From NCBI GenBank assembly GCA_031410295.1, contig JANNYX010000075.1, positions 1 to 29,025 on the forward strand: 29,025 nucleotides of DNA. The letters are read 5' to 3'. Of the stretch, positions 965 to 27,540 are shown piece by piece. The stretch is from Rhodoferax sp. GTDB taxonomy: Bacteria > Pseudomonadota > Gammaproteobacteria > Burkholderiales > Burkholderiaceae_C. Under the pieces are notes generated by a model. That model saw only the letters and a list, made by a program, of their open reading frames with translations, ran no database searches and was not told where the DNA came from. A program made the translations under genes and the position numbers. Numbering within the stretch: position 1 is the first letter of the stretch; each line of letters opens with the position of its first letter.

Positions 965-982
965 CGTAGGAAATCTCCTAGC
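965..982. promoter_or_regulatory. Imperfect YGTMRG-N6-CYKACR palindrome
   Basis: CGTAGG-AAATCT-CCTAGC. Confidence 0.4.
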
Positions 983-987
983 CTGGT

Positions 988-1014
988 TGAATCCAACGGC
1001 CCACAATTTGCGTA
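988..1014 (+). promoter_or_regulatory. Putative autoregulatory ECF-sigma promoter
   Basis: TGAATCCA-ACGGCCCACAATTTG-CGTA (TGAATCC-N16-CGTA), 30 nt upstream of the ECF start. ECF operons are commonly autoregulated. Confidence 0.65.
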
Positions 1015-1044
1015 GTCAATACATCCATCGAAGACAATCAAAGC

Positions 1045-1620
1045 ATGAACTCCGAAACCACCGACACTGAGCTGATCACGCTTTTGGATCGCGTTGCCAA
1101 CAAAGACCACCTGGCGCTCAAGGCGCTGTATGACTGCTGCTCGGCGCAGCTTTACGGACTCGCGCTTCGGGTTGTCAGCAACCGCGAATGGGCAGAAGAT
1201 GTATTGCAGGACGCCACCCTCAACATCTGGCGCGCGGCAGGGGATTACCGTGCATCCTTGAGTCCCCCCATGGCCTGGATGGGCTTGATCGTGCGCAGCC
1301 GGGCCCTTGATTTTTTGCGGCGGCGCAAGGCTGAAGGCAGCCAGGTGACCCAGGAACTCGACGACACCTTGGCGCAGACCTTGCCAGGCGACGCGCCCAA
1401 TCCAATGGACAAGGCGCTGGCCAGTGAGCAAGCCTGGGCGCTGCACCAATGCCTGGGCCAACTTGACCATGGGCCCCGCGAGGTGGTGAGCCTGGCCTAC
1501 ATCCGCGATCTCAGCCACAACGACCTGGCGCGACAGCTCAGGTTGCCGCTGGGAACCGTGAAGACCTGGATCCGGCGCGGCCTGGAACAACTGCGACTGT
1601 GCATGGCGCGTTTTGCCTGA
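1045..1620 (+). CDS. ECF RNA polymerase sigma factor (SigK-like)
   Basis: 191 aa. Region 2 (LYGLALRVVSNREWAEDVLQDATLNIW...WMGLIVRSRALDFLR) and region 4 HTH (LSHNDLARQLRLPLGTVKTWIRRGL). Confidence 0.92.
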   Translation: MNSETTDTELITLLDRVANKDHLALKALYDCCSAQLYGLALRVVSNREWAEDVLQDATLNIWRAAGDYRASLSPPMAWMGLIVRSRALDFLRRRKAEGSQVTQELDDTLAQTLPGDAPNPMDKALASEQAWALHQCLGQLDHGPREVVSLAYIRDLSHNDLARQLRLPLGTVKTWIRRGLEQLRLCMARFA

Positions 1621-1631
1621 GGATTGACCGC

Positions 1632-2426
1632 GTGAATTTGTCCCATACGCCTGAACTACTTGACCGCCTGGCCGGTGCCTATGCCCTGGGCACCCTGCGC
1701 GGCGGCGCACGTCGCCGTTTTGAGGTGCTGGCGCGCGAAAGCGCGGTGGTGCGTGCGGCAGCGCTGATTTGGCAAGCGCGCATCGCCGGCCTGAACGAAC
1801 TACAACCCGCGGCCCTGCCGCCGCCCGCGGTTTGGACCCGCATTGACAACTTGATCAAGGGTGAAACCGGCGCCCAGGCGATGCAGGACGCGCGCCTTGC
1901 CGCCGCTGCTTCCCGCGCGCCCGCCCAAGGGCTGGGTGGGTGGTTGCAAAGTTTGCCGTTGTGGCGGGGCGCCGCAATCGCTGGCGCATTCGCAACGGTT
2001 GCGGCGGTGTCGGTCGGATTGAACTTGCGAGGCCAGATGGGCAACGAGATTCAGCAACTTCAGGCCAAATTGCTGGCCACACCCCAAATCGAATACGTGG
2101 CGGTGCTGGCTGACGACAAATTGGCCGCCTCCATGCTGGTGACCTTTGATCCTAAAAACAGGCGGCTCACGCTGCAACGCGTAGGCGCCTACCAGGAAGC
2201 CAACGACCGTTCCCTGCAGCTGTGGGCGCTGCCACCCGCCGGCGGGCCGAAGTCGTTGGGCGTGTTGGGTGGCGACAGGGTATTGCGCCTGACTGCTGCC
2301 GAAGGCGACGTGAAAGAGGTTCCGGCCCTGGCCATCAGCCTGGAACCCAAGGGCGGCGTGCCCAGCGCAGGCGGGCCGACCGGACCGGTGCTCTTCAAGG
2401 GCGCCTTGATTCAAAAGCTGCTGTGA
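1632..2426 (+). CDS. Anti-sigma factor, RskA-like
   Basis: GTG start with GAGG RBS, 11 nt after the sigma stop. N-terminal [10 protein letters not shown]...P..PP.VW.RI, one TM helix, and a C-terminal RskA-type domain (LQLWALP...P.SLG.L; [11 protein letters not shown]...PTGPV). Confidence 0.85.
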
Positions 2427-2502
2427 GGGGCGGCTTGGGGCGCATCGCGTCTGCGCGAATGGTGAATCTATAAAATTCGCTCTTCAACAAAAAATAACGC
2501 CC

Positions 2503-3342: not shown

Positions 3343-3353
3343 CCGGCGCACCG

Positions 3354-3941: not shown

Positions 3942-4138
3942 ATGTTGTTTTGCGCACAGACTTATCCATGGGGTAAAAATCAAATCATGCATGTCTTGTT
4001 GAAACCAAGCAGCCAAGTGTTTGGTTTGAGCTCGCAACTTCACCCAATGGGCAGCGAAAATTCTTTGGCGCAAAACGCCGTGACGGCGTCAACAACAAAC
4101 GCGGTGGCGCCCGTCATCAGATCGATTGGAGTTTGACC

Positions 4139-5494
4139 ATGGGATTTTTCTCGATCCGCAAGAGCAGTTGGATCACCTTCTCCCTGGCTTGTGTGATGAT
4201 TTTGGTGTTGCTGTTTTTCAACGAAGTGGCGTATAGGCAAGCCTTCAAGACCTTGAACCGCCTGGGCGAAATGGCCCTGGCACGGACCAACCTTCAGGAA
4301 TTGACCCGCAGCATTGTTGACGCCGAAACCGGGCAACGGGGTTACCTGGTCACCGGGCGAAGAGATTACCGGGAACCCTACGACAACGCGCTAAAAAAAA
4401 TCGGGGAAACCTTCGCATCCATAAGCGGGCATTACCAAACTGACCCGCCCGCACGTGAGATTCTGGACAAGCTTCGCCTGGCCTCCGATATCCGGCTCTC
4501 CGAGCTGGCGTTGACGATTGAACGCTTCGACAACGGCAACGCGGATGCCGCACGGGAGATCGTGCTGTCTGACATCGGCAAAGAGCAGATGGAAACCATT
4601 CGGCGTTTGAGCCGGGTGTTGCTGGACTACGAAACACGAAAAGTTGCTGGCGGTCGGGCCGAGGTTTACCAACTGTTGGACGCCGACCGCATCGGTGTCG
4701 CGGTGTTTGGCCTGCTCAGCCTCATCGGTCTTTTCATGTACCTGCGCCAGAACTTCGCGCTTTGGACCAAACAGCAGGAGCTGCTCAATGCAGTGCAGGT
4801 CGAACGCAACCGCCTGGAGGTGGAAGTGATCAACCGCACAGCCCAACTCACCGAGCTGGCGGATCACCTGCAGAACGCCCGGGAAGACGAACGCCATCGG
4901 CTGGCACGAAACCTGCACGACGACCTGGGCGCGTTGTTGACGTCGGTCAAGCTTGACGCGGCCCGCATCCGATCACGGCTGCTCACCTCGTCACCACAAA
5001 GCCTGGAGCTCCTGCAACACATGGTGGCATCGGTGAACGACGCCATTGCGCTGGGCCGGCGCATCATCGAGGATCTGCGGCCATCCGCCCTGAGCAATTT
5101 GGGACTGGCACATACGCTTGAAATTCTGGCACAGGAATTCAGCCAGCAGTCCGGCATCAAAACCCACCAGTCGTTTGAACCCACAAAATTGTCAAGCAAC
5201 GCAGAGCTTGTGGTTTATCGGTTGGTGCAAGAAGCCATCACCAATATCAACAAATACGCGAAGGCGTCAAACGTCTGGATCGACCTTCGTCAACATGATG
5301 AGCATGTCGAGGTGGTGGTTCGCGACGATGGCGTTGGATTTGAGATGGGAACAAGTCCCGACTCCGCATTCGGGCTGGTTGGCATGCATTACCGCGTTGC
5401 TGCCGAAGGGGGCCGCCTGTCGGTGGTATCGGCTCCCGGTAGAGGCACCAAAATTCATGCGACGCTGCCGGCGTCGACCAATCTTCCACCCTAG
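4139..5494 (+). CDS. CHASE3-domain sensor histidine kinase (HisKA_3/NarX-type)
   Basis: ATG 4139 with GGAG RBS. Two TM segments flank CHASE3 (DAETGQRGYLVTG...Y.EPY). H-box ARNLHDDLGALLT, N-box EAITNINKYA, G boxes DDGVGF and FGLVGM..R...GG. Confidence 0.92.
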   Translation: MGFFSIRKSSWITFSLACVMILVLLFFNEVAYRQAFKTLNRLGEMALARTNLQELTRSIVDAETGQRGYLVTGRRDYREPYDNALKKIGETFASISGHYQTDPPAREILDKLRLASDIRLSELALTIERFDNGNADAAREIVLSDIGKEQMETIRRLSRVLLDYETRKVAGGRAEVYQLLDADRIGVAVFGLLSLIGLFMYLRQNFALWTKQQELLNAVQVERNRLEVEVINRTAQLTELADHLQNAREDERHRLARNLHDDLGALLTSVKLDAARIRSRLLTSSPQSLELLQHMVASVNDAIALGRRIIEDLRPSALSNLGLAHTLEILAQEFSQQSGIKTHQSFEPTKLSSNAELVVYRLVQEAITNINKYAKASNVWIDLRQHDEHVEVVVRDDGVGFEMGTSPDSAFGLVGMHYRVAAEGGRLSVVSAPGRGTKIHATLPASTNLPP

Positions 5495-7388: not shown

Positions 7389-8231
7389 TCAGGCCCTGGG
7401 TTCACCCCGGCGGTTGACAACGATAGTTGGGCCAGGTGGCGTGGTCATTTGAATCTGGTGGTCGATGCCGCGGAACGTATAACCGACGTCCCACAAGTCC
7501 GCGCGCACCTGACCCGGAATATTTGCGCAGCGTTGCACGCTCTGAGTCGGCAACGGCTGGCCGGCACTATTGCGTCCCACCTGCGCGCCCAGGACACCAC
7601 CGGCAATCGCACCGCCGACGGTTGCCAAATCTTTGCCGCGGCCACCGCCCACCTGGTGGCCCAGGATGCCGCCGATAACAGAACCGACTACAGTTCCGGG
7701 AACATTTGAATTGTTTTGTTGTTGCGAGATCTGCTCCCGCTCCACCCAACAGCGTTGTTCGGGTGGCCCCACAACTGCACGCACGGAAGTGACATCGGCC
7801 TCAAACAGGCGTTCGTTGTTGCGCCTGCGATTGTCATAAACCGGTGAAGGTGCCGGTGCATACCGATAGTCTCCAACCTGCGCGTCGTTGCCAATCGGAC
7901 GGACCGAAGAAATACGGTCGTTGATGCCCATCGCAGTCAGCGACGGGTAGCGTCCCGGGCGCAGAACCCTGCATTGGCCGTCATGTTTTGCATGCTCACA
8001 CACTTCCCAGCGACGGCTCAGGACAATGACCGACGACGCGCGGTCGTTGAAGCCAGAGTCGCTGAAGTTTTCGACCCGTTGACCGGTACTGAAGGAGCGC
8101 CCCTCAAAATCGTCGTTTTCAAAAAAAGTCACCTGCGCGACAACTTGGCTGGAAAAGGCAAAGGCAAAAGCAACTCCGGCGATGGATCTTTTCAAGTTGG
8201 TTTTCACGGAATATGTGGAAGTGTTGGACAT
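7389..8231 (-). CDS. Beta/gamma-crystallin domain plus glycine-zipper (2TM) protein
   Basis: Signal peptide ending VVA-Q. Greek-key motifs VTFFEND.FEG...NDRASS and C...G.C..LRPG.Y......NDRISS. C-terminal GSVIGGILGHQVGGGRGKDLATVGGAIAGGVLG. Confidence 0.85.
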   Translation of the reverse strand: MSNTSTYSVKTNLKRSIAGVAFAFAFSSQVVAQVTFFENDDFEGRSFSTGQRVENFSDSGFNDRASSVIVLSRRWEVCEHAKHDGQCRVLRPGRYPSLTAMGINDRISSVRPIGNDAQVGDYRYAPAPSPVYDNRRRNNERLFEADVTSVRAVVGPPEQRCWVEREQISQQQNNSNVPGTVVGSVIGGILGHQVGGGRGKDLATVGGAIAGGVLGAQVGRNSAGQPLPTQSVQRCANIPGQVRADLWDVGYTFRGIDHQIQMTTPPGPTIVVNRRGEPRA

Positions 8232-8288: not shown

Positions 8289-8306
8289 CGTAGTAAATAT
8301 CCTACG
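8289..8306. promoter_or_regulatory. YGTMRG-N6-CYKACR palindrome
   Basis: CGTAGT-AAATAT-CCTACG in the divergent 8232-8420 spacer. Confidence 0.65.
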
Positions 8307-8321: not shown

Positions 8322-8339
8322 TGTAGGAGATTACTTACA
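8322..8339. promoter_or_regulatory. GacA/UvrY-box-like palindrome
   Basis: TGTAGG-AGATTA-CTTACA, one mismatch to TGTAAG-N6-CTTACA. Confidence 0.7.
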
Positions 8340-8420
8340 ATTGATCGGCCTGGTCGCTCGTAGCATTAAAAATAAAGCAAATTCATAATGGGGCGAAGCT
8401 CGATTGGGTAAATACACTAC

Positions 8421-8831
8421 ATGCATATGCTAAAGACTTACCTTGTCGAGGACAGTGCGGTGATTCGTCAAAGTTTGATCACGACGCTCGAAGAACTCAG
8501 CGACGTCAAGGTCATCGGAACCGCGGAAGATGAGGCTTCGGCGGTGGCCTGGCTGGCGGACACCAGTAACCTGGTAGACCTGGTGATCATCGATATTTTC
8601 CTCAAGGGTGGTTCAGGTCTGGGCGTGCTTAGAAGCGTCAACGCCATGGCCCTGGGTTGCAACCTGGTTGTGTTGACAAACTACGCGACCGTTGACATGC
8701 GGCTCAAATGCATAGAGTTGGGCGCCAGACGGGTTTTTGACAAGTCCAATGACATTGACGCATTGATCCACTTCTGCGAAAAATTGTCATCAGGCGACCC
8801 TGACACCACCTCGCCCGCACTGCTGCAGTAA
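8421..8831 (+). CDS. Single-domain response regulator (receiver only)
   Basis: YLVEDS, DLVIIDIFL.GGSG (phospho-Asp), VVLTN, FDKS. No output domain. Confidence 0.9.
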   Translation: MHMLKTYLVEDSAVIRQSLITTLEELSDVKVIGTAEDEASAVAWLADTSNLVDLVIIDIFLKGGSGLGVLRSVNAMALGCNLVVLTNYATVDMRLKCIELGARRVFDKSNDIDALIHFCEKLSSGDPDTTSPALLQ

Positions 8832-8863: not shown

Positions 8864-9496
8864 CTACTGGATCAAGCCATTCTTCATGGCGTAGTAGGTC
8901 AGTTCGCTGTTGGAATCCAGCTTCATTTTTTCCATGACACGCGTGCGGTAGGTGCTCACCGTTTTCACGCTGAGCGACATGCTGACTGCCATGTGCCCGA
9001 CCGTTTCTCCTTTGGCCAGGCGTAGAAATACCTGAAGCTCCCGCTCCGACAGCTGTTCGTGAAGGGGTTTGTCGGCGCCGCCGATCAAATTGTCAGCCAG
9101 TTGTTCTGCAACACCGGCAGTAATGTATTTGCGCCCTCGACATACCGTGCGTATCGCTGTCACGATTTCCTGCGGGTCACATTCCTTGTTCAGATATCCG
9201 CTGGCTCCTTGGCGCAACAATGTGGTTGCGTAATGGGCCTCGGGAAATCCACTCAGAATCAACACCGGCAAATCCGGTGCACGGGCCCGAATCGAAGCCA
9301 GTGCGTCAACCCCGCTTTGGTCGGGCATGGAAATGTCCATCAGGATGACGTCCACCTCGCCTTTTCGAACGATGTCGACGGCCTGACGCCCAGTGGTGGC
9401 TTCGGCCACGACTTCGAAGTCGATCTGTTCGGCAAAAAATTGGCGCAAGCCCGCCCGCACCGTGGCGTGGTCGTCAACAATGGCAATTCGAATCAT
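8864..9496 (-). CDS. NarL/LuxR-family response regulator, GacA/UvrY-like
   Basis: Receiver (IVDDH, DVILMDISMP.QSG, GASGYLNK) plus LuxR HTH LSERELQVF..LAKG..V......SLSVKTVSTYRTRVMEKM......ELTYYA.KNGLI, resembling the UvrY/GacA C-terminus. Confidence 0.92.
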   Translation of the reverse strand: MIRIAIVDDHATVRAGLRQFFAEQIDFEVVAEATTGRQAVDIVRKGEVDVILMDISMPDQSGVDALASIRARAPDLPVLILSGFPEAHYATTLLRQGASGYLNKECDPQEIVTAIRTVCRGRKYITAGVAEQLADNLIGGADKPLHEQLSERELQVFLRLAKGETVGHMAVSMSLSVKTVSTYRTRVMEKMKLDSNSELTYYAMKNGLIQ

Positions 9497-9713
9497 GGGG
9501 TGCGGTTAGTTGTTTGGCAGCATGATCCCACAGTTTTGATCCGGGCTGAAACCAGACTGGATTTGTGCCGCCGCCACGCAACAGTGGCAGTTCTATTATT
9601 TCTACTATTTTGCGCGGTCAGCAGGTGCTGTCATCCGCCGATTTCCATCAACCTGCAACGGCGATTGGAGCGAATGACAAGCATAGTGATATCCGCCGAG
9701 CGAACCCGCTTTC

Positions 9714-9731
9714 TGTCGGCAACGTCCTACG
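9714..9731. promoter_or_regulatory. YGTMRG-N6-CYKACR palindrome
   Basis: TGTCGG-CAACGT-CCTACG in the 383-bp divergent spacer between the LuxR regulator and the DUF883-like operon. Confidence 0.65.
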
Positions 9732-9879: not shown

Positions 9880-10260
9880 ATGATTTCATCCAACCCTTCC
9901 CAAGACACTTCCCGCTTCGCAGACAAACTTGCCGACAAAGCGGACCAGGCCATCCAGTCCACACAGCACGCGGCAAACGGTGCGCTGGACAGCTTGAGCA
10001 GCAGCGTGCAAGGAATCCGTAACCAGGCCGGGCCGATGTTGGCAAATGTTGCGGGTCAAGCGGGTGAGCTGCTTCAAACTAGCCGGGATGTCGTTCGTAC
10101 CGCATCGAGCCAAGTCACCGACGCCGCGCTCAAAGCACGCGACGGTACGGTGAGTTATGTCAAAGAGGAGCCCGTGAAGGCCATGCTGATTGCCGCAGCG
10201 ACCGGAGCTGCTCTTATGGCCCTGATCAGCATGATGAGTGGTTCGAATCGGCGCATTTAG
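9880..10260 (+). CDS. ElaB/YqjD (DUF883)-like tail-anchored protein
   Basis: Ala/Gln-rich helical body, then YVKEEP.KA.LIAAATGAAL.AL C-terminal TM. AAGGA RBS. Confidence 0.75.
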   Translation: MISSNPSQDTSRFADKLADKADQAIQSTQHAANGALDSLSSSVQGIRNQAGPMLANVAGQAGELLQTSRDVVRTASSQVTDAALKARDGTVSYVKEEPVKAMLIAAATGAALMALISMMSGSNRRI

Positions 10261-10310
10261 GCTGTCTCTTAGCCCAAACTCAGCCACCCGTTAACCAGCG
10301 GTCTAAGCCT

Positions 10311-10706
10311 TTGTTCCATCCACTTTTTCAACCGATCGTCCGCCTGATCACTGCGCGGCCAGAACTCTTGGTGGACCACGCACAGGCCTATGCCGAGTTG
10401 TTGTCCAGTGAACTTGGAATTGCAGGTGAAAACTGGAAACGTCAGTTGCTATTCAACGGCGCGGCTGTTTTCGCCTTGGCAGTTGGCGTTATTTTTGCGG
10501 GTGTCGCTTTGATGTTGTGGGCAATGGTGCCTGTCGCTGAAAGTCCGGCGCCTTGGGCGCTGATCGCAGTGCCGGTTGCGCCTTTCGTATTGGCATTTGC
10601 TTGCCTGTTTTTCGCCAGCCGGTATGCAAAGGCAGTGCCGTTTATCAATGTCAAGCGCCAATTGGCAGCGGATCTGGCGATGGTTCGAGATGCGGGTTCA
10701 GCATGA
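10311..10706 (+). CDS. Two-TM membrane protein, YqjE/phage-holin-3_6-like
   Basis: N-terminal amphipathic helix (HAQAYAELLSSE), two TM helices, and C-terminal F..VKRQL.ADL. TTG start, exact position uncertain. Confidence 0.7.
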   Translation: MFHPLFQPIVRLITARPELLVDHAQAYAELLSSELGIAGENWKRQLLFNGAAVFALAVGVIFAGVALMLWAMVPVAESPAPWALIAVPVAPFVLAFACLFFASRYAKAVPFINVKRQLAADLAMVRDAGSA

Positions 10707-11209
10707 CGGCGGCTTCTGTTCGTGCCACTTTGGCCTGTGAGCGCTTGACGCTGTCGCGCGAAGCCTTTCGCCAGGGACTTGTAGTCAATATTGCCGCAGC
10801 GGGAGCAAATAAACCACCGTTGGCCTGGCTGGAGGGACTCAACAACCTTCCTGGATTTGGCGCTGTATTGACTGCACTGCGCGCTTGGTGGGCTGATCAG
10901 CCCATTCGAAAAGCCAGCTTGGGCGTTGCCGAGGCGGCGAAGACGGCCTTGTTGCCAATAGCACAACGCGCGCCACTAACCCTTGTGCTAGGTGCGCTGG
11001 CGCTCGGAGGAATGTTTGTTTGGGTGCGACCGTGGCGCTGGCTCACCGCGCCTACGGTTCTGGCCGGGCTAATGCCACAAATTTTGAGCAAGATCATCGC
11101 CAATGTGCCAGCACAATCCTGGCTGGCCGGTTTGGCTTCGCTTTCAGCCGCGCGCGGTCAGAGTCCATACCCCGGGCCAGCTGATTTACACGCTTCGGAA
11201 ACGAGATGA
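10703..11209 (+). CDS. Hypothetical membrane-associated protein (third gene of the triad, positionally YqjK-like)
   Basis: ATG 10703 overlaps the upstream stop (ATGA). N-terminal RL..SRE..R and a hydrophobic patch followed by RPWRW. Confidence 0.65.
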   Translation: MTAASVRATLACERLTLSREAFRQGLVVNIAAAGANKPPLAWLEGLNNLPGFGAVLTALRAWWADQPIRKASLGVAEAAKTALLPIAQRAPLTLVLGALALGGMFVWVRPWRWLTAPTVLAGLMPQILSKIIANVPAQSWLAGLASLSAARGQSPYPGPADLHASETR

Positions 11210-14118: not shown

Positions 14119-14136
14119 TGTCGGAATTGGCCGACA
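14119..14136. promoter_or_regulatory. Palindrome with perfectly complementary arms, TGTCGG-N6-CCGACA
   Basis: TGTCGG-AATTGG-CCGACA, 4 nt after the 13209-14114 stop and 74 nt before the next start. Confidence 0.7.
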
Positions 14137-14210: not shown

Positions 14211-14372
14211 ATGCGCAGCAATCTTCCCCGGGACTTGCACAGCGTCCCCGTTCTGGATCCGCTGGAGCCGGACGATGAGGGTCCAACATTTGTCGATCCC
14301 GATGAAGGTCCAATTCAAGCCCTGATTCAGGATGATCCGGAATACGACCGGATCGTCAGCCCCAACGATTGA
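14211..14372 (+). CDS. Small acidic Asp/Pro-rich protein
   Basis: ATG 14211 preceded by GGAG. MRSNLPRDLHSVPVLDPLEPDDEGPTFVDPDEGPIQALIQDDPEYDRIVSPND (53 aa). Confidence 0.55.
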   Translation: MRSNLPRDLHSVPVLDPLEPDDEGPTFVDPDEGPIQALIQDDPEYDRIVSPND

Positions 14373-14456
14373 TTCACACTTGCTTTGGCTTCGCTAACGC
14401 ACAGTCGGTCACAGGCAATCAGGCCATCATCGTCATACAAGCGAACGGAGCGTCAA

Positions 14457-14927
14457 ATGAACAAGTCCAATCCCCCCACCTCATTTGGCGTTTTCAAGCC
14501 CGTGGGCCACGTCGTCGTCGCGCTGGGCAGCATTGAGAAATTGCAGGCGCTGGCCAGTGCGTTGGCAGCCCAAGGCTTTTCAGCAGGCGACATGGTCCGA
14601 TACACGCCGCAGGAAATGATCAACCAGGTGGACGCGCAACTGTTGACGGCGAGCCCCTTGGCTTCGGTTGGGCAGGATCTCAACCTCATCAAGGCGCACC
14701 GGGTGCTTGCTGAAGGCGGATGCAGTTTCTTGGTGGTGCACGCCCCCAACGGCGAACAGGTGGCCAGCGTTGCGGCTGCAGCAAAAAAACATCACGCCAA
14801 ATCAGCCCAACGTTACGGCAGTTTGATTGTTGAAGAACTGGTAACGGCGCCTGATGACGAACCGCAGACGTTTGAGTCACCCGACACAGGCCTTGACAGT
14901 CCGGATGCGCGTCAAGCGCAGCCATGA
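14457..14927 (+). CDS. Conserved hypothetical protein
   Basis: ATG 14457 with GGAG RBS. SFGVFKPVGHVV N-terminus and an alpha/beta-like pattern. Stop overlaps the next start (ATGA). Confidence 0.75.
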   Translation: MNKSNPPTSFGVFKPVGHVVVALGSIEKLQALASALAAQGFSAGDMVRYTPQEMINQVDAQLLTASPLASVGQDLNLIKAHRVLAEGGCSFLVVHAPNGEQVASVAAAAKKHHAKSAQRYGSLIVEELVTAPDDEPQTFESPDTGLDSPDARQAQP

Positions 14928-15325
14928 CGCGTTATTTCGCTGCCTACGGCGCCACTGCGGCGTTGATGCTTGCGCTGGATGCAATCTGGCTCGGATTCAT
15001 TGCCAAACCGCTGTACCAGGAGGCTATCGGGCATTTGATGGCCGACCCACCCTATTTGCCGGCGGCGCTTGTGTTTTATGTGCTTTTTCCCCTGGGTTTG
15101 ATGATTTTTGCAGTGGCGCCAAATGGCGTCACCACCTCTTGGGACAAGACGCTGCTGATGGCCGGTTTGTTCGGACTCCTTGCTTACGCCACCTATGACC
15201 TGACCAATCTGGCGACGCTGCGCAACTGGCCGGCCAGCCTGGCCGTGATCGACATGGCCTGGGGCACCTTCATTAGCGTAGCTGCGGCAGCTGCAGGCAA
15301 GGCCGCACTGGATCACATCGCGTAG
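14924..15325 (+). CDS. DUF2177-family membrane protein
   Basis: LD..WLG.IA..LY...IG.L, then GL.GL.AYATYDLTN.ATL.NWP......D.AWG. Confidence 0.85.
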   Translation: MTRYFAAYGATAALMLALDAIWLGFIAKPLYQEAIGHLMADPPYLPAALVFYVLFPLGLMIFAVAPNGVTTSWDKTLLMAGLFGLLAYATYDLTNLATLRNWPASLAVIDMAWGTFISVAAAAAGKAALDHIA

Positions 15326-17472: not shown

Positions 17473-18156
17473 ATGTCTGATTCAAAAATGCCTGACGGCG
17501 ATCACCTGTCGCATCACGCCGCGCAAGGGTTCCGAGACCACTTTGCGTTGGCCTTTACCAAGATGCTGCGCCTGATTGCCGACGCTTTTTTTGCACAGCG
17601 GTATGGGCACCGCGCCATCGTTCTTGAAACCGTTGCGGCGGTCCCCGGCATGGTGGGCGCCACCATCACCCACCTGAAGTGCCTGCGCCGCATGAGTGGC
17701 GATGGCGGCTGGATCCACACGCTGCTGGAGGAAGCCGAAAACGAACGCATGCACTTGATGACATTCGTCGCCCTGGCCCAGCCCACTGCATTTGAACGCC
17801 TGGTGGTGATGTTCACGCAATGGATTTTCTACGTCGGCTTCTTCCTGCTGTATTTGATATCGGCCCGCACCGCGCACCGCGTCGTGGGTTATTTTGAAGA
17901 GGAGGCCGTGCTGAGTTACTCCCAGTACCTGGCCCAGATTGAAAGTGGCAATTCACCCAATGTGGCGGCACCCGCCATTGCCATTGCCTACTGGAACCTG
18001 CGCGCCGATGCCAGGCTCAGCGACGTGGTGCTGGCCGTGCGGGCTGACGAAGCAAATCACCGCGATGTCAACCATGGCTTTGCCGACCAGCTGGCAGCAG
18101 AGGCTTCTGGTGTGTCCAAAACCCGACCAAACAGCAGCGGTTTGTCTGACCAATAA
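17473..18156 (+). CDS. aox: Alternative oxidase (di-iron ubiquinol oxidase)
   Basis: LETVAAVPGMVG, LLEEAENERMHL, HR.VGYFEEEAV.SY and VRADEANHRDVNH contain all di-iron ligands. AAGGA RBS. Confidence 0.95.
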   Translation: MSDSKMPDGDHLSHHAAQGFRDHFALAFTKMLRLIADAFFAQRYGHRAIVLETVAAVPGMVGATITHLKCLRRMSGDGGWIHTLLEEAENERMHLMTFVALAQPTAFERLVVMFTQWIFYVGFFLLYLISARTAHRVVGYFEEEAVLSYSQYLAQIESGNSPNVAAPAIAIAYWNLRADARLSDVVLAVRADEANHRDVNHGFADQLAAEASGVSKTRPNSSGLSDQ

Positions 18157-18212: not shown

Positions 18213-18230
18213 ATTCGGATTTGTCCTACA
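18213..18230. promoter_or_regulatory. Imperfect YGTMRG-N6-CYKACR palindrome
   Basis: ATTCGG-ATTTGT-CCTACA, with a further CCTACA half-site at 18273. Confidence 0.45.
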
Positions 18231-18361
18231 GCCACTGGTGCAACCTGCCTGCAGCGCGGCAACCCTGGGAAACCTACAGTTAAAGCCTCTTCGTTGTGAT
18301 GACGCTGTTACGGTATTTCCAATCATCGTCACAACCCTTTGGCCACTTTTCAGGACACATC

Positions 18362-18985
18362 ATGAACAAACGTTTTCAACACATCACTGGCTTGTTTTTG
18401 ACTGCCGCGGCATTGGCTGGCGCTTCGGCAGTGCAGGCTCAAAGCAGCAGTTCCGCCCAAAACACGGGCGGCCCCTTCGCCTGGAACGGCTCGCCCAAGG
18501 CTTACATCGACCTGAGCGCAGGCCAAACCGACTATCGCCTGAACAACGGCACGGGTGTATTCGCCTCAGACAACCGCAGCTCGGCCTACACCCTGTCTGC
18601 TGGCGCCTACTTCACCAACAACCTGGGCCTAGAGGCGGGCTACACCGATTTCGGTCGAATCAACCGCGTCGGTGGCAGCACCCGTGCTGAAGGCTTGAGC
18701 CTGCGCCTGGTCGGCAAACTTCCACTCGCGCCTTCATTAAATTTGCTGGGGAAAATCGGCACGATTTACGGGCGCACGGATGTGGGTTCAGCGGCAGGGT
18801 CAGGCGTCACCGCCGGCGCTGAAAACGGATGGGGTCTGTCCATGGGCATCGGCGCCGAATACCTGTTCACACCCAACTGGTCGGCAGTGCTTCAGTACGA
18901 CGCGCATGACTTGCGTTTTGCCGGCGCTTCGAGCGACCGCGAACGTTTGGGCGTCACCAGCCTGGGCGTGCGGTACGCGTTCTAA
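18362..18985 (+). CDS. Outer-membrane beta-barrel protein (OmpA-like 8-stranded membrane domain)
   Basis: ATG 18362 with CAGGA RBS. Signal peptide ending AVQA. Alternating strands (GAYFTNNLGLEAGYTDFG; GAEYLFTPNWSAVLQYD). Terminal GVRYAF with C-terminal Phe. Confidence 0.9.
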   Translation: MNKRFQHITGLFLTAAALAGASAVQAQSSSSAQNTGGPFAWNGSPKAYIDLSAGQTDYRLNNGTGVFASDNRSSAYTLSAGAYFTNNLGLEAGYTDFGRINRVGGSTRAEGLSLRLVGKLPLAPSLNLLGKIGTIYGRTDVGSAAGSGVTAGAENGWGLSMGIGAEYLFTPNWSAVLQYDAHDLRFAGASSDRERLGVTSLGVRYAF

Positions 18986-20971: not shown

Positions 20972-23347
20972 TCAGACCCTGGGTGGGTTGCGGTCCCTCG
21001 CCGCATGGCGATGCGCCGCGATGGCCTTGATCAAGGCCGGCAGCATGCCGTCCACGTCGTCTGCCGCGCACAGCAGGACGCCGGCGTCTTTGGCCGCGTT
21101 CTGCTGCAGGCCGGCCTGCTCGAGCAGGGCGCGCGACTCACCCAGCGCGAGTATGGTTTTCCCGTGCCGGTACGCGTCCTTCAGGAATTCCATCGTCTGG
21201 CCGTTCTCCCCCAGTGTTTGCACGCCATCCGCCCCGCCAGGCAACACCACGGCATCGAACAGGACAGACGGCGAATTCTCCATTGACTTGTTGGCCTCAA
21301 CCTTGACGTGGCCGCCCTGCGACATGAATTTGCCGACACGCGGCCCGATGAAATGCACCACCGCTCCGGCCGCTGTCAAAGCGGTCTGCACAGCGGCAAG
21401 AGAGGTGTGGTGAACGCCGTCGGCCACCAAAAGGGCAACCTGGCGGGTGCGAATTCCGCACTCTCCGGGCAACGCCATCAAGGACAACGCCGGCGACTTC
21501 TTGACCTCCGGTGTGGGCGGATTGGGCATCGCCCGCGGCATGGCCGCTGGCGCCTTCATCCCCAGGCCGGCGGCCACTTCCGTGGCAAGTGTTGTGGACA
21601 CGTTCATCAAAGACGCCAACATGCGCTCCCGGATGGCAGGCACCGTCAACTTGCTCAGTTCAAAGCGGAAGGCGGCAACGATATGGTCCTGCTCGATTGC
21701 AGTCTGGCTGGCAAAAAACAGGGACGCCTGGGCGTAGTGTTCGGCAAATTTCTCCGGGTTGCCGCGAACCTTGTCTTCCTGCACGGCGGCTGGAAACGAG
21801 ACAAAGCCCGCGCCACCGGCCTGAAACGGGCACCCGCCACCCAGCGAATTGGGCTCGTAGGCGACGCGGCCGCGGTGAATGGCCTGGCGGTGCAGACCAT
21901 CTCGCTGGTTGTTGTGAACCGGCGCCAGCGGCGCGTTGATCGGAATTTCATGGAAGTTAGGGCCGCCAAGACGGGACAGCTGCGTGTCGACATACGAATG
22001 AATCCGCCCGACAAGCAGCGGGTCGTTAGAAAAATCGATGCCTGGCACGACGTGGGCAGTGCAAAAGGCAACCTGCTCGGTTTCGGCAAAAAAATTGTCC
22101 GGATTGCGGTTCAGCAGCATGCGCCCAACGGGTACCACGGGCACCAGTTCCTCGGGAATCAGCTTGGTGGCGTCGAGCACGTCAAAGCTGAATTGTTCGC
22201 TTTGCGCTTCAGTGAAAGTTTGCAGGCCGAGTTCCCACTCCGGGAAATCACCGGATTCAATCGCCTCCCACAAATCACGGCGATGGAAATCGGGGTCCGC
22301 CCCGGAGATCTTCACCGCTTCGTCCCATACCAGGGAATGTGTGCCCTGCAGCGGTTTCCAGTGAAATTTGCAGAATACCGATTCACCAGCGGCGTTGACC
22401 AGGCGAAAAGTGTGCACACCAAAACCCTGCATCATGCGGTAGCTGCGCGGGATGCCGCGGTCCGACATCACCCACATCAGTGTGTGGGTCGTTTCCGGCA
22501 TCAGGGAAGCGAAATCCCAGAAGGTGTCGTGGGCCGAGGCGGCCTGGGGCATGCCGTGGTGGGGCTCGGGTTTGACAGCGTGCACCAGGTCAGGGAACTT
22601 CATCGCGTCCTGGATGAAAAATACCGGCATGTTGTTGCCCACCAGGTCCCAGTTTCCTTCATCGGTGTAGAACTTGACGGCAAAGCCGCGCACGTCACGG
22701 GCGGTGTCCTTGGAGCCGCGCTCACCCGCCACGGTTGAGAACCTGACGAACACGGGCGTCACTTTGCCGGCCTGAGCAAACGGCGCCGCCCGGGTGAGTT
22801 TGGTCTGTGCGTCATAACACTCAAAATACCCGTGCGCCGCAGAGCCGCGGGCATGTACGATGCGCTCCGGGATACGTTCGTGGTCAAAGTGCGTGATTTT
22901 TTCGCGCAGCACAAAGTCCTCAAGCAGGGTCGGCCCGCGCAGGCCCGCCTTCAGGGAATGCTGGTTGTCGCTGACGGGCACGCCCTGGTTGGTGGTCAGG
23001 GTCTGTCCGTCTAGATCAACGCGCACGCGGTCCAACGCGGCGCTGATCGGGTTGGCGCCAGCCACTGCCGATGCGCCCGTCTTGTCGTTGCCATTTTTTT
23101 CAGACTCGGTGCTGGCCAGCAGCACCGCCGACGTGGCTGCCGACTGAAAGCCGGCTGGTGGCGCCAGTGCATGAGCATGGCCGAACTCCAGGTGCTTGCT
23201 TGCATTGAATGGTCGTCCAGCGACCATCTCGTTCATTTCTTGCGCTTTGACTGAGGTGACTTCTTCGGCTTGCAATAAAGTGTTCGCAACTTCTGGCGGC
23301 TGGGTCGTCGTGCGCGGGCGTTTGGGCGGTTTTTTGCTGGCGGGCAT
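20972..23347 (-). CDS. katE: Large-subunit monofunctional catalase HPII with C-terminal DJ-1/PfpI-like domain
   Basis: [15 protein letters not shown] (distal His), RFSTVAG.RGS.DT.RD.RGF, WDLVGNN, proximal R.HSY.DTQ, and C-terminal [19 protein letters not shown]. Confidence 0.97.
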
Positions 23348-23417: not shown

Positions 23418-23435
23418 TGTAGGAAGAACGCTATG
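23418..23435. promoter_or_regulatory. Imperfect YGTMRG-N6-CYKACR palindrome upstream of katE
   Basis: TGTAGG-AAGAAC-GCTATG, with a second half-site TGTCAG at 23448. Confidence 0.4.
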
Positions 23436-24784: not shown

Positions 24785-25106
24785 GTTCCGAGTCTCGACG
24801 CCTACAAAGGCGACTGGCATCAGGCGGCCACGCGGGCGCCTGTAGGACTATGGCCAAGGCCAGCGTTACTTTGGTAAGGGGCTGTGACTGCAAACGCTGG
24901 GACCTGGCAAGATCGAATCCGGACTGAATTTGAATAATGTGCGCAGCCCAATTTGTCTGAAATGCAATTGCGGCCCTGGACTACAAAGCATAGTTTGAGC
25001 TGCACTAGCATTGCGTTGCAAAGGGTTCTCCCATTTCAATCGCGGTTCATATCGACGCGTTGACACAACCCTTTCACCCTACCACTTCAAGCCACGAGAG
25101 GGCCTT

Positions 25107-25346: not shown

Positions 25347-25376
25347 TGCGTTTTGGGGAGTTTCCGCGGTTCACAA

Positions 25377-26447
25377 CTATTTAGGTCGCGGGCGCACAAT
25401 TTTGGCCTGAACCGCCTGCAAACGCCCGGCGCGCAGTTCCTTCACCGCGTGGGCAACTGCGCTGGCCACATTGCGCACCTCCTGCTGCACCACTAGGTCC
25501 GCATCCAGCGTTTCATGGCTGGTGGCGTAAGGTTCAAAGTAGCCAATGAAACGATCCAGTCGCGCCTGAGCGCCGGCATCGATGAAACCCATCCAGTCAA
25601 GCCAGTCCGACAAGGCGCGACGCGAGCCCTCAATGCCCGCCACGTCACCGTGCACGATCAAACCGTAGACGCGCCCCGCCAGGTGCTGCGGGTAGTCCCA
25701 CCCCGCCATTTCCAGCGCTTTGGCTTTTGCTGGCTTTTTGCCGCCGGTTGACGTCGGGTCGGGATTGCCGCCATCGGCGCATACCAGGCGGTCAATCATC
25801 AGTTTGAGCGGGCTGGGGCTTTGGTACCAGTAGACCGGCGTGGCAATGATGACCGCATGCGCCGCAGTCCAGCGCTCGTAGATTTCGGCCATCCAGTCAT
25901 TGGTTTGGTGCAACGCGTGGTTGGGGTAACAACTGCAAGGCCAGTGGCACAGCGGCATGGCGGTCGATGCGCAACCCTTGCACGGGTATATGTTGAGCCC
26001 ATACTCAGAGGTGATCCGGCTCAGATCCAGCACGTCGGCCTGGATTTGCGCGTGCTCCAGCACCTCGCGCGCCAGACCCACCAGCCGGAAGGTTTTGGAG
26101 ATTTCTCCCGGGCAGGTACCGTCATTACGTGCTGAGCCGCAAATCAGCAGCACGCGGCTTGTGGTGGCGGGGTTCAACCAGTGCAACTGCGCTGCCTCCA
26201 GGCGCTTTTTGGTTGCCACCCACTCTGTCGAAAGCGCGTAGTCCGGGTCGGCATAACCCGCTCCCGCTTTTTGCGTGAATGGGGCTTTGCGGCCTTCAGT
26301 GTAAGCAACCCAGGCGATTTCTTCCAGACGTGAGATTGCGGGGTCTTCGGCCCTGAAAGCGGCGTCGATGAATGAGGCGCGAAAGCGCGCACTGAACTCA
26401 TTGCGTACCAGGGGCGCTGGCGCCTGGCCTTTGCGGATTTCGATCAT
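25377..26447 (-). CDS. Flavodoxin-like / NAD(P)H-dependent FMN reductase family protein with Cys cluster
   Basis: VLLICGSAR, CKGC...CHWPCSC, D.M..IY..W..A......TPVYWYQSPS.LK.MIDR, G.VYGLIVHGD. AGGAG RBS. Confidence 0.85.
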   Translation of the reverse strand: MIEIRKGQAPAPLVRNEFSARFRASFIDAAFRAEDPAISRLEEIAWVAYTEGRKAPFTQKAGAGYADPDYALSTEWVATKKRLEAAQLHWLNPATTSRVLLICGSARNDGTCPGEISKTFRLVGLAREVLEHAQIQADVLDLSRITSEYGLNIYPCKGCASTAMPLCHWPCSCYPNHALHQTNDWMAEIYERWTAAHAVIIATPVYWYQSPSPLKLMIDRLVCADGGNPDPTSTGGKKPAKAKALEMAGWDYPQHLAGRVYGLIVHGDVAGIEGSRRALSDWLDWMGFIDAGAQARLDRFIGYFEPYATSHETLDADLVVQQEVRNVASAVAHAVKELRAGRLQAVQAKIVRPRPK

Positions 26448-26462
26448 TTGGATCTCCTTGGT

Positions 26463-27344
26463 TCAAGCTTCGTTTAGACTTTTGCGGGAGCCGTGCGCAT
26501 TGGCATAGACCCAGGTGAATTCCGCGCCAATCAGGAATATCTGCGCAGAGTAATACACCCACACCAGGACCACCACCAAAGATCCAGCGGCGCCAAAACC
26601 AGACACTACTCCGCTGCGCCCGATGTAGACACCTATCAGCCACTTCCCAACCATAAACAGGATGGCGGTGAACATGGCGCCGATCCATACGTCCCGCCAT
26701 TGCACCCGCACTCTTGGCATGACCTTGTAAATCAATGCAAACATGAGCGTCACCAAAAAGAAACCGCCCAGTGCGTCCGTGACCGCCGCCACGGCGTACC
26801 AGCCGCCGAACGCGGGCCCCACCAGCCTGCCGGCAGTGGCCAGCGCGGCACTCACGACCAATGACACGATGAGCAAGAAACCAATGGCCAGAATCATCCC
26901 GAATGACAACAGGCGAGTGCGCACCAGTTCAACAATTCCGCTGTGACGCTTTTGGGTGGGAACGTGCCAAATGCGGTCCAACGCATCCTGAAGCTCGCCG
27001 AATACGGTGGTGGCGCCGATGAGCAAGAGCACAACGCCTAGCAAGGTGGCGGCCGCCCCTTCTGCCGGTTCCTGCACGCTAGCCAGCAATTCCTGCACCG
27101 CCTTGGCTCCGGTGTCGCCCATCATGGCGCGCAGCTCGGTTTCGATCTCGCCGCGGGCGGCATCTTCGCCAAAAACCAGCCCGGCCACGGAAATGACAAT
27201 AAGCAGCAACGGCGCCAGGGAGAACATCGTGTAATACGCCAGCGCTGCACCCATGCTGGGCACATAGTCTTCGATCCATGAATTCGCCACGCGCTTGACC
27301 AGCGACCACATTGCCTGTGCAGGGCCTACACGTTTTTCACTCAC
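26463..27344 (-). CDS. YihY/virulence factor BrkB-family inner-membrane protein
   Basis: GAALAYYT.FSLAPLL, LL.GATTVF.ELQ.ALD.IW, Y...P..R..W..VW.GA, Y......S.FG.AGSL...L.WVYYSAQI.L.GAE. Confidence 0.92.
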   Translation of the reverse strand: MSEKRVGPAQAMWSLVKRVANSWIEDYVPSMGAALAYYTMFSLAPLLLIVISVAGLVFGEDAARGEIETELRAMMGDTGAKAVQELLASVQEPAEGAAATLLGVVLLLIGATTVFGELQDALDRIWHVPTQKRHSGIVELVRTRLLSFGMILAIGFLLIVSLVVSAALATAGRLVGPAFGGWYAVAAVTDALGGFFLVTLMFALIYKVMPRVRVQWRDVWIGAMFTAILFMVGKWLIGVYIGRSGVVSGFGAAGSLVVVLVWVYYSAQIFLIGAEFTWVYANAHGSRKSLNEA

Positions 27345-27452
27345 TTGAATATCCTTGGTTCATAACCTGTCCGGGTAGACGTTAAGAGCCGCGAAATGGA
27401 TGGTCTGTTCGCCAGCGAACATAGTGCTATCCACAACGCTGGCTCGCATGCG

Positions 27453-27470
27453 ACGCGGAAATTTCCTACA
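27453..27470. promoter_or_regulatory. Imperfect YGTMRG-N6-CYKACR palindrome
   Basis: ACGCGG-AAATTT-CCTACA in the divergent yihY/PNPOx spacer. Confidence 0.45.
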
Positions 27471-27522
27471 GGGAGACGGCCCGCTCGCTGATCAACCGCA
27501 TCTGAAAGCGCTGGTTGAATCA

Positions 27523-27540
27523 TGTCGGTGACAACCAATG
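27523..27540. promoter_or_regulatory. Imperfect YGTMRG-N6-CYKACR palindrome
   Basis: TGTCGG-TGACAA-CCAATG. Confidence 0.35.

Follow-up and report, generated by a model that had tools for sequence, protein, structure and literature searches.

A contig of Rhodoferax sp., referred to here as the window (the whole stretch of DNA analysed, 29,025 nucleotides), carries a NarL/FixJ-type response regulator gene, a sensor kinase gene, a stand-alone receiver gene and a series of genes that are predicted targets of the regulator:

193 to 777, minus strand: DUF3455 protein (Pfam), a lineage-variable predicted target
4133 to 5494, plus strand: CHASE3-HisKA_3 sensor kinase (Pfam domains), the probable cognate kinase
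7389 to 8231, minus strand: beta/gamma-crystallin and glycine-zipper protein (Pfam), predicted target
8421 to 8831, plus strand: stand-alone receiver (Response_reg only, acceptor Asp present), the most conserved predicted target
8864 to 9496, minus strand: NarL/FixJ-type response regulator (Response_reg and GerE domains), the probable binder
9880 to 11209, plus strand: operon of DUF883-like, YqjE-like and YqjK-like membrane proteins (Pfam/NCBIfam matches below cut-off), predicted target
14211 to 15325, plus strand: operon of a 53-aa acidic protein, hyp180 and DUF2177, predicted target
18296 to 18985, plus strand: OmpA-like beta-barrel outer membrane protein (OMP; Pfam, promoter conservation), predicted target
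20972 to 23347, minus strand: large-subunit catalase of KatE type (Pfam), predicted target
26463 to 27344, minus strand: YihY/BrkB family membrane protein (Pfam), a lineage-variable predicted target
27590 to 28567, plus strand: PNPOx-like general stress protein and small lipoprotein (Pfam), predicted target unit

A sequence-only reading of this DNA had proposed that about 11 copies of an 18-bp palindrome with GacA/UvrY geometry mark a regulon here, and all 11 of the sequences that it listed are indeed present. Its degenerate pattern has exactly three perfect matches in the window (8322, 9714 and 14119) as opposed to 0.02 expected from shuffles. With up to two mismatches, the pattern is not discriminating (46 matches in the window versus 27.4 ± 5.1 expected), and the weaker listed sites therefore required other evidence. 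An unbiased k-mer count of the window's intergenic DNA found GTAGGA/TCCTAC to be 27-fold enriched, with 8 copies versus 0.3 expected. The refined consensus, YGTAGGAc-N2-gTCCTACR, is sharper than the earlier version and is built of two inverted heptads, TAGGACA and TGTCCTA, that abut. A scoring matrix, seeded with the window motif and trained only on the loci of other genomes, has its strongest positions at 2-3, 5-6, 13-14 and 16-17 of the 18 bp, and its top four matches in the whole 3.5-Mb assembly all lie in the window (8289, 8322, 9714 and 14119). Moreover, 9 of the 17 assembly matches of at least 14 bits are intergenic in an assembly that is 13.6% intergenic, and permuted-matrix controls gave far fewer intergenic matches than the real matrix. 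Eight sites in the window, all of them intergenic, are supported:

965 to 982, no strand assigned: box, 14.5 bits, predicted leftward promoter of the DUF3455 gene
8289 to 8306, no strand assigned: box A, full palindrome, 20.6 bits, predicted leftward promoter of the crystallin/glycine-zipper gene
8322 to 8339, no strand assigned: box B, full palindrome, 20.6 bits, predicted rightward promoter of the lone receiver gene
9714 to 9731, no strand assigned: full box, 20.2 bits, upstream of the DUF883/YqjE/YqjK-like operon
14119 to 14136, no strand assigned: full box, 19.0 bits, upstream of the operon of the 53-aa acidic protein (ATG at 14211), hyp180 and DUF2177
18213 to 18230, plus strand: degenerate box with strong right half GTCCTACA, 7.5 bits, predicted OMP promoter
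23418 to 23435, minus strand: degenerate box with a TCCTACA half, 2.2 bits as a palindrome, predicted katE promoter
27453 to 27470, plus strand: degenerate box between the YihY and PNPOx-like genes, 1.8 bits

What binds these sites together is a fixed promoter geometry that is common to different target genes. A -10-like hexamer begins exactly 44 nt past the box in 76 cases, with no more than three at other offsets except for a second group at +67 (16 cases), and GTC[CT]G occurs 74 times at offset +15 but at most six times at any other. The resulting layout places the box centre near -65.5, with a third element resembling a half-site between -41 and -34. This element, GYCYGMYN, is a putative direct-repeat half-site 23 bp downstream of the second half-site and abuts a weak -35. 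When read towards their own genes, the eight window sites fall between the 96.7th and 100th percentile for the +15 and +44 elements. For example, box A, in minus orientation, has GTCCGCT at +15 and the -10-like GACAGT at +44 (combined score in the top percentile), while box B is followed at exactly 44 nt by CATAAT (8384-8389), where relatives have CATACT. Similarly, box 9714 has the third half-site-like element GCCCGACA at +15, and box 14119, flanked by a stop codon at 14114 and the true start at 14211, is followed by GTCTGATC at +15 and by GAAGAT at +44. Box 965 shows ATCCGCTC at +15 and GAAACT at +44 in the minus orientation only; an ECF sigma gene was rejected as its target, the box elements pointing to DUF3455.

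The sites at 18213, 23418 and 27453 are poor palindromes but retain a half-site that matches TCCTACA perfectly, along with the promoter elements at their fixed downstream positions and conservation upstream of orthologues, and are best read as degenerate one-and-a-half sites. TACAGT lies at +44 from 18213; 23418 has GTCTGATA at +15, scoring in the top percentile, and GAAGAT at +44; and 27453, read towards the PNPOx-like gene, has CGCTGATC at +15 and TTGAAT at +44, and this variant of the box is kept in close relatives. In a genome-wide composite scan the three were inseparable from noise, with shifted-offset controls giving 2-10 matches at equal threshold. Three further listed sites, 19673 (-8.3 bits), 27523 (-4.0) and 24767 (8.5), lack supporting elements downstream whichever way they are read, and are taken as chance matches; with them, DUF1003 drops out of the proposed target list, of which the YqjD-like triad, katE, OMP, YihY, PNPOx-like and small secreted or membrane proteins stand.

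Related loci from many genera of Comamonadaceae/Sphaerotilaceae contain 254 matches of at least 12 bits, 198 of them intergenic. Boxes are also kept upstream of orthologues, as the earlier proposal would predict. In an alignment of the genus, boxes A and B are both conserved, with box A standing out as a conserved island, and box 14119 recurs with its elements and distance in 7 of 19 rows including the window's own (six other genomes). GTCCTACA precedes the OMP start in 16 of 17 orthologues at 23-68 nt (52-68 nt in 14 of those), and nine OMP orthologues scored from the box show a CCTACA-like repeat at about +17 plus the -10 at +44. Regulon membership nevertheless varies by lineage. Upstream of katE, TCCTACA is the sole conserved island, in 5 of 10 genus loci; a box like 965 with a matching proximal element occurs in 5 of 25 genus rows including the window's own (four other genomes); and YihY orthologues have a full box upstream in 14 of 79 loci, versus 0 of 79 for in-gene controls. 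Chance matching, or a repeat without regulatory function, might be suggested by the noise in the two-mismatch pattern and by the three sites dropped above, but this is scarcely credible in view of the enrichment, the fixed geometry and the conservation across genomes within otherwise diverged spacers, the last of which refutes chance for the eight supported sites. The palindrome is a real, widely conserved predicted docking site.

The related loci were retrieved through the regulator gene, so that the sampling itself accounts for part of the linkage between motif and regulator. With that proviso, a site lies no more than 3 kb from the regulator gene in 69 of 70 related loci, and site density per 10 kb falls from 4.27 within 3 kb of the regulator to 0.63 over the remainder of those loci, and to about 0.07 when this genome is counted without the window. 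The kinase is the regulator's divergent neighbour in 58 of 68 loci (here it is displaced by 3.4 kb), and the receiver gene is convergent with the regulator in 61 of 70. All of this fits the earlier choice of the LuxR/NarL-type protein at 8864-9496, with the CHASE3-HisKA_3 kinase, as the likely regulator. The protein retains the phospho-acceptor Asp54 and has orthologues of 83-90% identity in many genera. Its recognition region was also read as GacA/UvrY-like, and the protein's best curated family match is UvrY/SirA/GacA, yet below the cut-off (178.7 versus 280 bits); by these scores it is GacA-like but outside the GacA/UvrY family. Its recognition-helix region, SVKTVSTYRTR, presumably resembles that of BvgA/EvgA as much as that of GacA.

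Conceivably, a different transcription factor binds the palindrome, such as a Crp/Fnr-like protein whose gene is itself preceded by a box, leaving the response regulator a mere neighbour or target. This genome (C152) and three related loci each have a Crp-like gene with such a box before it, Crp-family sites are also typically TGT...ACA palindromes, and the regulator gene usually has no box of its own in the related loci. Such a binder nonetheless seems improbable, with Crp-like genes amounting to only 12 gene calls across 80 loci, the 18-bp width and strongest positions fitting the sites of GacA/UvrY and BvgA and not the layout of CRP (16 bp) or FNR (14 bp), and boxes following regulator orthologues (62-86% identity; flanking sites at 6/6 loci) but not paralogues (42-47%; 0/4). 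Genomes without the regulator were compared at an unlinked DUF1328 gene, where the positive controls were also without a site. The probable binder is the NarL-type regulator, working with the CHASE3 kinase and the lone receiver.

It is likely that the palindrome is the operator of this regulator, within the following predicted mechanism. The kinase would sense a periplasmic signal, leading to phosphorylation of the regulator, a dimer of which would directly occupy the palindrome, centred some 65.5 bp before the start of transcription. An extra subunit may then settle on the third half-site beside the weak -35, and RNA polymerase would be brought to the -10 hexamer. Counting against this model is the 23-bp phasing of the third half-site, since same-face binding would predict 21-22 bp. 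The receiver gene, preceded by a box in 54 loci (of 71 such genes), probably encodes a feedback component of the phosphorelay, such as a phosphate sink. Some NarL-family proteins repress, and the regulator could instead be a repressor or anti-activator at the boxes; repression would lead one to expect overlap with the -35, the -10 or the start, and the rigidly placed box upstream of the core promoter, with its proximal half-site abutting a weak -35, resembles activator-dependent BvgA-fha promoters, making repression a remote prospect. Among public RNA runs, none contains this DNA. We infer activation.

The regulon most likely comprises envelope and general stress genes, for membrane, oxidative and general stress protection. 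Crystallin/glycine-zipper genes have a box upstream in 20 related loci (of 27 such genes), and the DUF883/YqjE/YqjK operon, whose third gene family matches 10727-11185 by tblastn, retains its synteny with the box; in related loci, the 58 DUF1328 genes heading a DUF1328-DUF883 operon have 40 matrix matches upstream. KatE is encoded some 5-10 kb or less from the regulator in several genus members. The PNPOx-like gene heads a conserved promoter-lipoprotein unit, and in relatives the equivalent promoter runs directly into the lipoprotein homologue. Other contigs contribute predicted members encoding a glycine-zipper lipoprotein, DUF1328, the Crp-like regulator and a GlsB-like protein.

These families overlap with the classic RpoS regulon of E. 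coli, which includes DUF883/YqjD, YqjE, OsmB-like, OsmY-like BON, KatE, GlsB/YeaQ and DUF1328/YtjA. It is therefore possible, though not favoured, that the regulator binds the boxes while an RpoS-like sigma factor reads the promoters, making the system a co-activator atop a sigma-S type response rather than an independent switch. An RpoS-like group-2 sigma gene occurs in this genome (327.7 bits versus about 277 for RpoD), cultured carriers of the regulator have a true RpoS above the curated cut-off, and the -10 elements give the consensus CATACT, not TATAAT. Conversely, the -13 C that typifies sigma-S promoters is missing from the conserved -10, and in Rhodoferax antarcticus, where the gene for a 71% orthologue of the regulator is immediately preceded by a box, no RpoS-like match exceeds RpoD level; sigma specificity is not readable from sequence alone. 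The suggestion that this is a two-component alternative to RpoS is unsupported, since the system is found alongside RpoS-like sigma genes.

Among known systems, BarA/GacS-UvrY/GacA/SirA belongs to the same protein family, has the nearest curated HMM and shares the inverted-repeat geometry, its site being the 18-nt TGTAAG-N6-CTTACA (PMC4682653). The half-sites differ at one position each (TGTAGG/CCTACA here), although box 8322 carries the CTTACA arm. BarA/GacS is a tripartite kinase, unlike the CHASE3-HisKA_3 kinase here, and the UvrY/GacA box lies at about -180 with IHF (PMC4682653), as opposed to the rigid position near -65.5. Predicted targets here are protein-coding stress genes rather than Csr/Rsm RNAs, none of which was found in a search of the window.

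BvgA of Bordetella (Pfha, Pfim3, Pptx) likewise binds a pair of inverted heptads that abut (TAAGAAATTTCCTA); from there, additional dimers follow at 22-bp intervals as far as a poor -35 (PMC7250471). Its TAAGAAA and TTTCCTA correspond to TAGGACA and TGTCCTA here, and an upstream high-affinity site with weaker promoter-proximal binding is a predicted likeness. By contrast, BvgA places whole dimers where a single extra half-site, phased at 23 bp, is found here, its kinase is of a different type, and it governs virulence rather than environmental stress protection, with binding here being predicted.

In Mycobacterium, the NarL-family regulator DosR (DevR) of the DosS/DosT-DosR system directly activates clustered stress and dormancy genes through a promoter-near palindromic box of the type GGGAC-N4-GTCCC. 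The regulator family and the box near promoters of clustered stress genes are thus shared, while half-site spacing and sequence, phylum and gene content differ, as does the sensor (a periplasmic CHASE3 domain here, a haem-GAF domain in DosS/DosT). Finally, the enterobacterial RpoS regulon shares the families named above, including yqjD/elaB-type DUF883 and osmB-like glycine-zipper lipoproteins, but control here would be exerted by a predicted operator and a two-component regulator instead of a sigma factor. The predicted regulon is previously undescribed yet mechanistically ordinary, coexisting with RpoS rather than replacing it.

The window is contig C75 of a 78%-complete, 700-contig MAG, whose relatives carry the labels Rhodoferax, Methylibium, Rhizobacter, Roseateles, Paucibacter, Polaromonas or similar names.

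Gene content of the window, as assigned by Pfam
4133-5494, plus strand: CHASE3-HisKA_3 kinase
7389-8231, minus strand: secreted protein with crystallin and glycine-zipper domains
8421-8831, plus strand: stand-alone receiver
8864-9496, minus strand: NarL/FixJ-type response regulator
9880-11209: DUF883/YqjE/YqjK-like triad
Elsewhere in the window: DUF3455; ECF sigma/RskA pair; thyA; folA; a BON protein; a second secreted protein
Elsewhere in the window: two PLD proteins, hydrolases, an alternative oxidase and an OmpA-like outer membrane protein (OMP)
Elsewhere in the window: DUF1003, a KatE-type catalase and YihY/BrkB
Elsewhere in the window: PNPOx-like general stress protein

The sequence-only reading had listed 11 copies of an 18-bp palindrome (the box), and all 11 sequences were found where it had placed them. 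Its degenerate pattern fared less evenly, with three perfect matches against 0.02 expected but mostly noise at two mismatches, where 46 matches compare with 27.4 expected. In a pattern-free count, GTAGGA/TCCTAC was the most over-represented hexamer of the window's intergenic DNA (eight copies versus 0.3 expected), and an exact 5-mer dyad search of the window returned no repeated dyad, indicating that the motif is degenerate. The motif was rebuilt solely from 80 loci of other genomes, fetched by means of the regulator protein, and the resulting consensus, YGTAGGAc-N2-gTCCTACR, amounts to TAGGACA|TGTCCTA with G/C flanks and holds its information almost wholly at positions 2-3, 5-6, 13-14 and 16-17. 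When the 3.5-Mb assembly was scored with this other-genome matrix, the best four matches were those starting at window positions 8289, 8322, 9714 and 14119 (19-20.6 bits); site 965 reached 14.5 bits, and the remaining six listed sites scored at most 8.5 bits. The predicted intergenic enrichment was borne out, as nine of the 17 matches of at least 14 bits were intergenic although intergenic DNA makes up 13.6% of the assembly, and column-permuted control matrices gave far fewer intergenic matches.

The related loci also revealed a fixed arrangement downstream of the box. A GTC[CT]G element starts 15 nt after the box end in 74 cases, versus at most six at any other offset, and a -10-like hexamer (CATACT or CACACT) starts 44 nt after it in 76 cases, versus at most three elsewhere save for a secondary cluster of 16 at +67. 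The +15 element varies by target (GTCCGCT, GTCTGCT, GCCCGACA, GCCTACAG, GTCTGATC) and is best read as a putative third half-site, directly oriented and lying 23 bp beyond the second. If the +44 hexamer is the -10, the box would lie at -74 to -57 (centre -65.5) and the third half-site at -41 to -34, abutting a weak -35. An ECF-sigma promoter of the form TCCTACA-N16-TCTGA was also considered for these sequences and was rejected on the grounds that both palindrome arms are equally conserved, the TCTGA-like element being a variant of the third half-site. Placement of box 8322 at -42 with TAGCAT as its -10 is likewise contradicted by the conserved hexamer at +44.

Small matrices for the +15 and +44 elements, trained on other genomes, were used to score the window sites against a background of 20,000 randomly chosen intergenic positions. 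Eight of the 11 listed sites scored from the 96.7 to about the 100 percentile in the gene-facing direction, and three (19673, 24767 and 27523) failed in both orientations.

Sites with downstream elements facing a gene, and their combined percentiles
965, minus strand: faces DUF3455, ~100
8289, minus strand: faces the crystallin gene, ~100
8322, plus strand: faces the receiver, 99.98
9714, plus strand: faces the DUF883 triad, 96.7
14119, plus strand: faces a 53-aa protein starting at 14211, ~100
18213, plus strand: faces the OMP, 99.4
23418, minus strand: faces katE, ~100
27453, plus strand: faces PNPOx, 97.5

A genome-wide composite scan (box, proximal element and -10) recovered the strong sites alone, and controls with shifted offsets gave 2-10 matches at the same threshold, so half-sites are not callable genome-wide. 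Since such a scan does not part degenerate sites from noise, support for 18213, 23418 and 27453 is local. Upstream of the OMP start, GTCCTACA was found in 16 of 17 genus orthologues at 23-68 nt, 14 of them at 52-68 nt; the left arm is usually TGCCAG, and in nine orthologues scored from the box a CCTACA-like repeat occurs at about +17 and a TACAGT/TAAAGT hexamer at +44. Upstream of katE, a TCCTACA block is the only conserved island in five of ten genus loci, and one orthologue carries a full 18.8-bit box 50 nt further upstream of this block. The YihY/PNPOx spacer site, 27453, shows the same TGTAGGAAATTTCC variant in close relatives. On this sequence evidence, the three are read as genuine, putatively lower-affinity sites. 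The oxidase AOX (17473-18156; Pfam 1.4e-80), just upstream of the box-controlled OMP gene, belongs to a family that is uncommon among Betaproteobacteria.

YihY orthologues carry a full box in 14 of 79 cases versus none of 79 in-gene controls. The presence of the YihY box tracks that of the regulator imperfectly, and one genome with an 85% regulator orthologue has no such box, making YihY a variable member of the regulon. In three related loci (L111, L116 and L118) the rightward promoter beside YihY runs directly into a small-lipoprotein homologue with a AMPLPGQANDHSVL motif. The window's PNPOx unit contains a lipoprotein gene (28145-28567) homologous to this YihY-adjacent lipoprotein, and its PNPOx gene is thus an extra first gene of a conserved unit. 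Comparison of window positions 27453-28567 with the same three loci shows the PNPOx-like gene gained or lost within a conserved transcription unit.

Conservation upstream of orthologues was likewise seen for the stronger sites, with box 14119 found in 7/19 and box 965 in 5/25 genus rows, the window's own included, and with the same proximal elements kept at the same distances. Box 965 lies in the divergent spacer (778-1044) between DUF3455 and the ECF sigma/RskA anti-sigma operon, and its downstream elements are oriented towards DUF3455 only. In a genus alignment of the DNA separating the crystallin gene from the receiver gene, the two boxes of that spacer stood out as conserved islands amid otherwise unalignable sequence.

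Across the 80 related loci and the window, 254 matches of at least 12 bits were found, 198 of them intergenic, and their density fell from 4.27 per 10 kb within 3 kb of the regulator gene to 0.63 over the remainder of these loci; for the part of this genome beyond the window it was about 0.07. A site lay within 3 kb of the regulator gene in 69/70 loci, a linkage biased upward by the fetching of loci via that gene. Regulator orthologues at 62-86% identity, including those of Rhodoferax antarcticus and Polaromonas sp. C04, had flanking boxes in 6/6 cases, versus 0/4 for the loci of 42-47% paralogues. The DUF1328 genes of regulator-lacking genomes were examined for a box, and regulator-bearing controls were likewise without one at an unlinked DUF1328 copy. 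The CHASE3 kinase is the regulator's divergent neighbour in 58 of 68 related loci and the receiver converges on the regulator in 61 of 70. The canonical order is YqjE < DUF883 < DUF1328 (box) < kinase > regulator < receiver (box, box) > crystallin/glycine-zipper (box) > secreted protein. Relative to this order, the window's kinase is displaced by 3.4 kb and DUF1328 lies on another contig (C77), accompanied by two boxes and a glycine-zipper lipoprotein.

In several species katE, the OMP gene and hyp180 lie a few kb or less from the regulator; together the four form a conserved stress island, the genes of which stand in a reshuffled order in the window. Several species of this genus have all four on a single contig, within a stretch of about 10-20 kb (G012:C125, G014:C174 and G017:C85; loci L194, L201, L199, L278, L279, L292 and L294).

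The regulator combines Response_reg (6.5e-30) and GerE (1.4e-14) domains in a NarL/FixJ architecture, and its phospho-acceptor residues (DD at 8-9, D54, S82 and K104) are all present in the translation. Full-length alignment placed it closest to the solved structures of VraR, DevR, NarL and EvgA. The proposal that it is of the GacA/UvrY type holds in part: the UvrY/SirA/GacA equivalog NF007018 is its best-scoring curated family, but at 178.7 bits it misses that family's cut-off of 280. The kinase has a periplasmic CHASE3 domain flanked by two membrane helices, HisKA_3 (7.9e-11) and HATPase_c, and is devoid of receiver and Hpt domains; its nearest NCBIfam models (MctS, UhpB, LiaS and NarQ/NarX) all fall below cut-off. 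Kinases with HisKA_3, as in NarX and UhpB, are the class that pairs with NarL-type regulators, and this domain is present here. By standard comparative reasoning, we infer that the regulator is the candidate binder of the box. Among the targets, conservation is highest for the lone receiver: 54 loci have a box upstream of it, out of 71 such genes. Its acceptor Asp is intact, and a feedback role for it is plausible. The element TGTGGGATCAT (regulator strand; 9515-9535) precedes the start codon of the regulator by about 37 nt. It is nearly invariant in all genus members and retained in the window despite the relocation of the kinase; it looks like an extended -10 (TGnGATCAT), which would let the regulator be expressed constitutively.

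In this genome and its relatives the targets are DUF883, YqjE-like, YqjK-like and DUF1328 proteins, glycine-zipper lipoproteins, crystallin-glycine-zipper proteins, BON-neighbouring secreted proteins and GlsB/YeaQ-like proteins, as well as the OmpA-like OMP, KatE, PNPOx-like and YihY proteins, a Crp-like regulator, GGDEF proteins and a large glucan-synthase-like protein. Because E. coli has many of these families in its RpoS regulon, a role in envelope and general stress or stationary phase is likely. The further suggestion of a two-component alternative to RpoS was not supported, as an RpoS-like sigma occurs together with the regulator in many genomes and the two systems thus coexist. An RpoS-like gene of this assembly (on contig C211) scores 327.7 bits (cut-off 378.7; RpoD ~277, RpoH ~130), similar genes occur in nearly all genus members, and Rhizobacter Root1221, Roseateles PN1 and Polaromonas C04 combine the regulator with an over-cut-off RpoS. 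In Rhodoferax antarcticus the regulator is present and an RpoS-like match was not found. The RpoS-type sigma is patchy among these Comamonadaceae (G044, G047 and G048 versus G041, G051 and G053), being found in Rhizobacter, Roseateles and Polaromonas isolates and not in R. antarcticus or two other Rhodoferax-like genomes. A bolder and rather unlikely reading would make the kinase, regulator and receiver the master switch, throughout Comamonadaceae and Sphaerotilaceae, of a quiescence-like general response to envelope and oxidative stress. The trio would act directly on about ten promoters in each genome, by way of an operator of three half-sites with rigid -65.5/-38 geometry, and largely independently of RpoS. 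Were it true, sigma-S and PhyR-EcfG would be joined by a third design for the general stress response of proteobacteria.

Two other strong matches in the assembly were set aside. A 17.8-bit box 71 nt upstream of hfq (contig C656, 1168-1185; L204), between der/engA and hfq, was not counted; it is without downstream promoter elements, and a comparable box was found in 0/22 genus orthologues, with one weak 7.5-bit match at the same position. A match on C452 between genes for methylmalonyl-CoA mutase and a beta-lactamase-fold protein is probably due to chance. A different palindrome, the AT-rich TATAGC-N6-CCTATA, occurs as an identical intergenic 18-mer three times (C8 16513, C89 3873 and C257 1736) and is listed also for C614 9880 and C228 1087; it is probably another operator or an AT-rich dispersed element.

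Comamonadaceae and their kin (Rhodoferax, Polaromonas, Rhizobacter, Roseateles, Paucibacter and Aquabacterium) dominate many freshwater, glacier-fed and root habitats, and to our knowledge almost nothing is known of how they control stress protection. Full-text literature searches found no published description of this system, a preprint on salt stress in Caldimonas contained nothing pertinent, and a search for transcriptomes found no RNA run containing this DNA. The system is a previously undescribed regulon whose regulator belongs to a well-known family: solid and useful, and mechanistically ordinary. What is gained is an operator sequence, a precise promoter grammar and a trio of regulator, kinase and receiver that different genera share at 83-90% identity. 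A single stress regulon can now accommodate genes whose function is unknown (DUF883, DUF1328, DUF3455, the glycine-zipper proteins and the 53-aa acidic protein), and the regulon hypothesis is directly testable in cultured strains.

Among known systems, UvrY recognizes the inverted repeat TGTAAG-N6-CTTACA, which is 18 nt long and located around -183 of csrB/csrC (PMC4682653). The window's box has the same width and symmetry but reads TGTAGG/CCTACA, with one base changed per arm. Unlike BarA/GacS, the linked kinase is not tripartite (HisKA-REC-Hpt), and whereas UvrY/SirA/GacA mainly target Csr/Rsm small RNAs, the supported boxes here all precede protein-coding genes; no Csr/Rsm RNA was found in the window, where no Rfam family reached its gathering score. 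For a member of the NarL/FixJ family the mechanism is a conventional one. The high-affinity upstream site of BvgA is a pair of abutting inverted heptads, TAAGAAATTTCCTA, and further dimers bind at weaker sites spaced every 22 bp down to a poor -35 (PMC7250471). The box is likewise composed of abutting inverted heptads, followed here by one extra half-site-like element at a fixed +15 (23-bp phasing) and a -10 at +44, and by analogy the BvgA arrangement is the closest counterpart of the promoter geometry proposed for this regulon.
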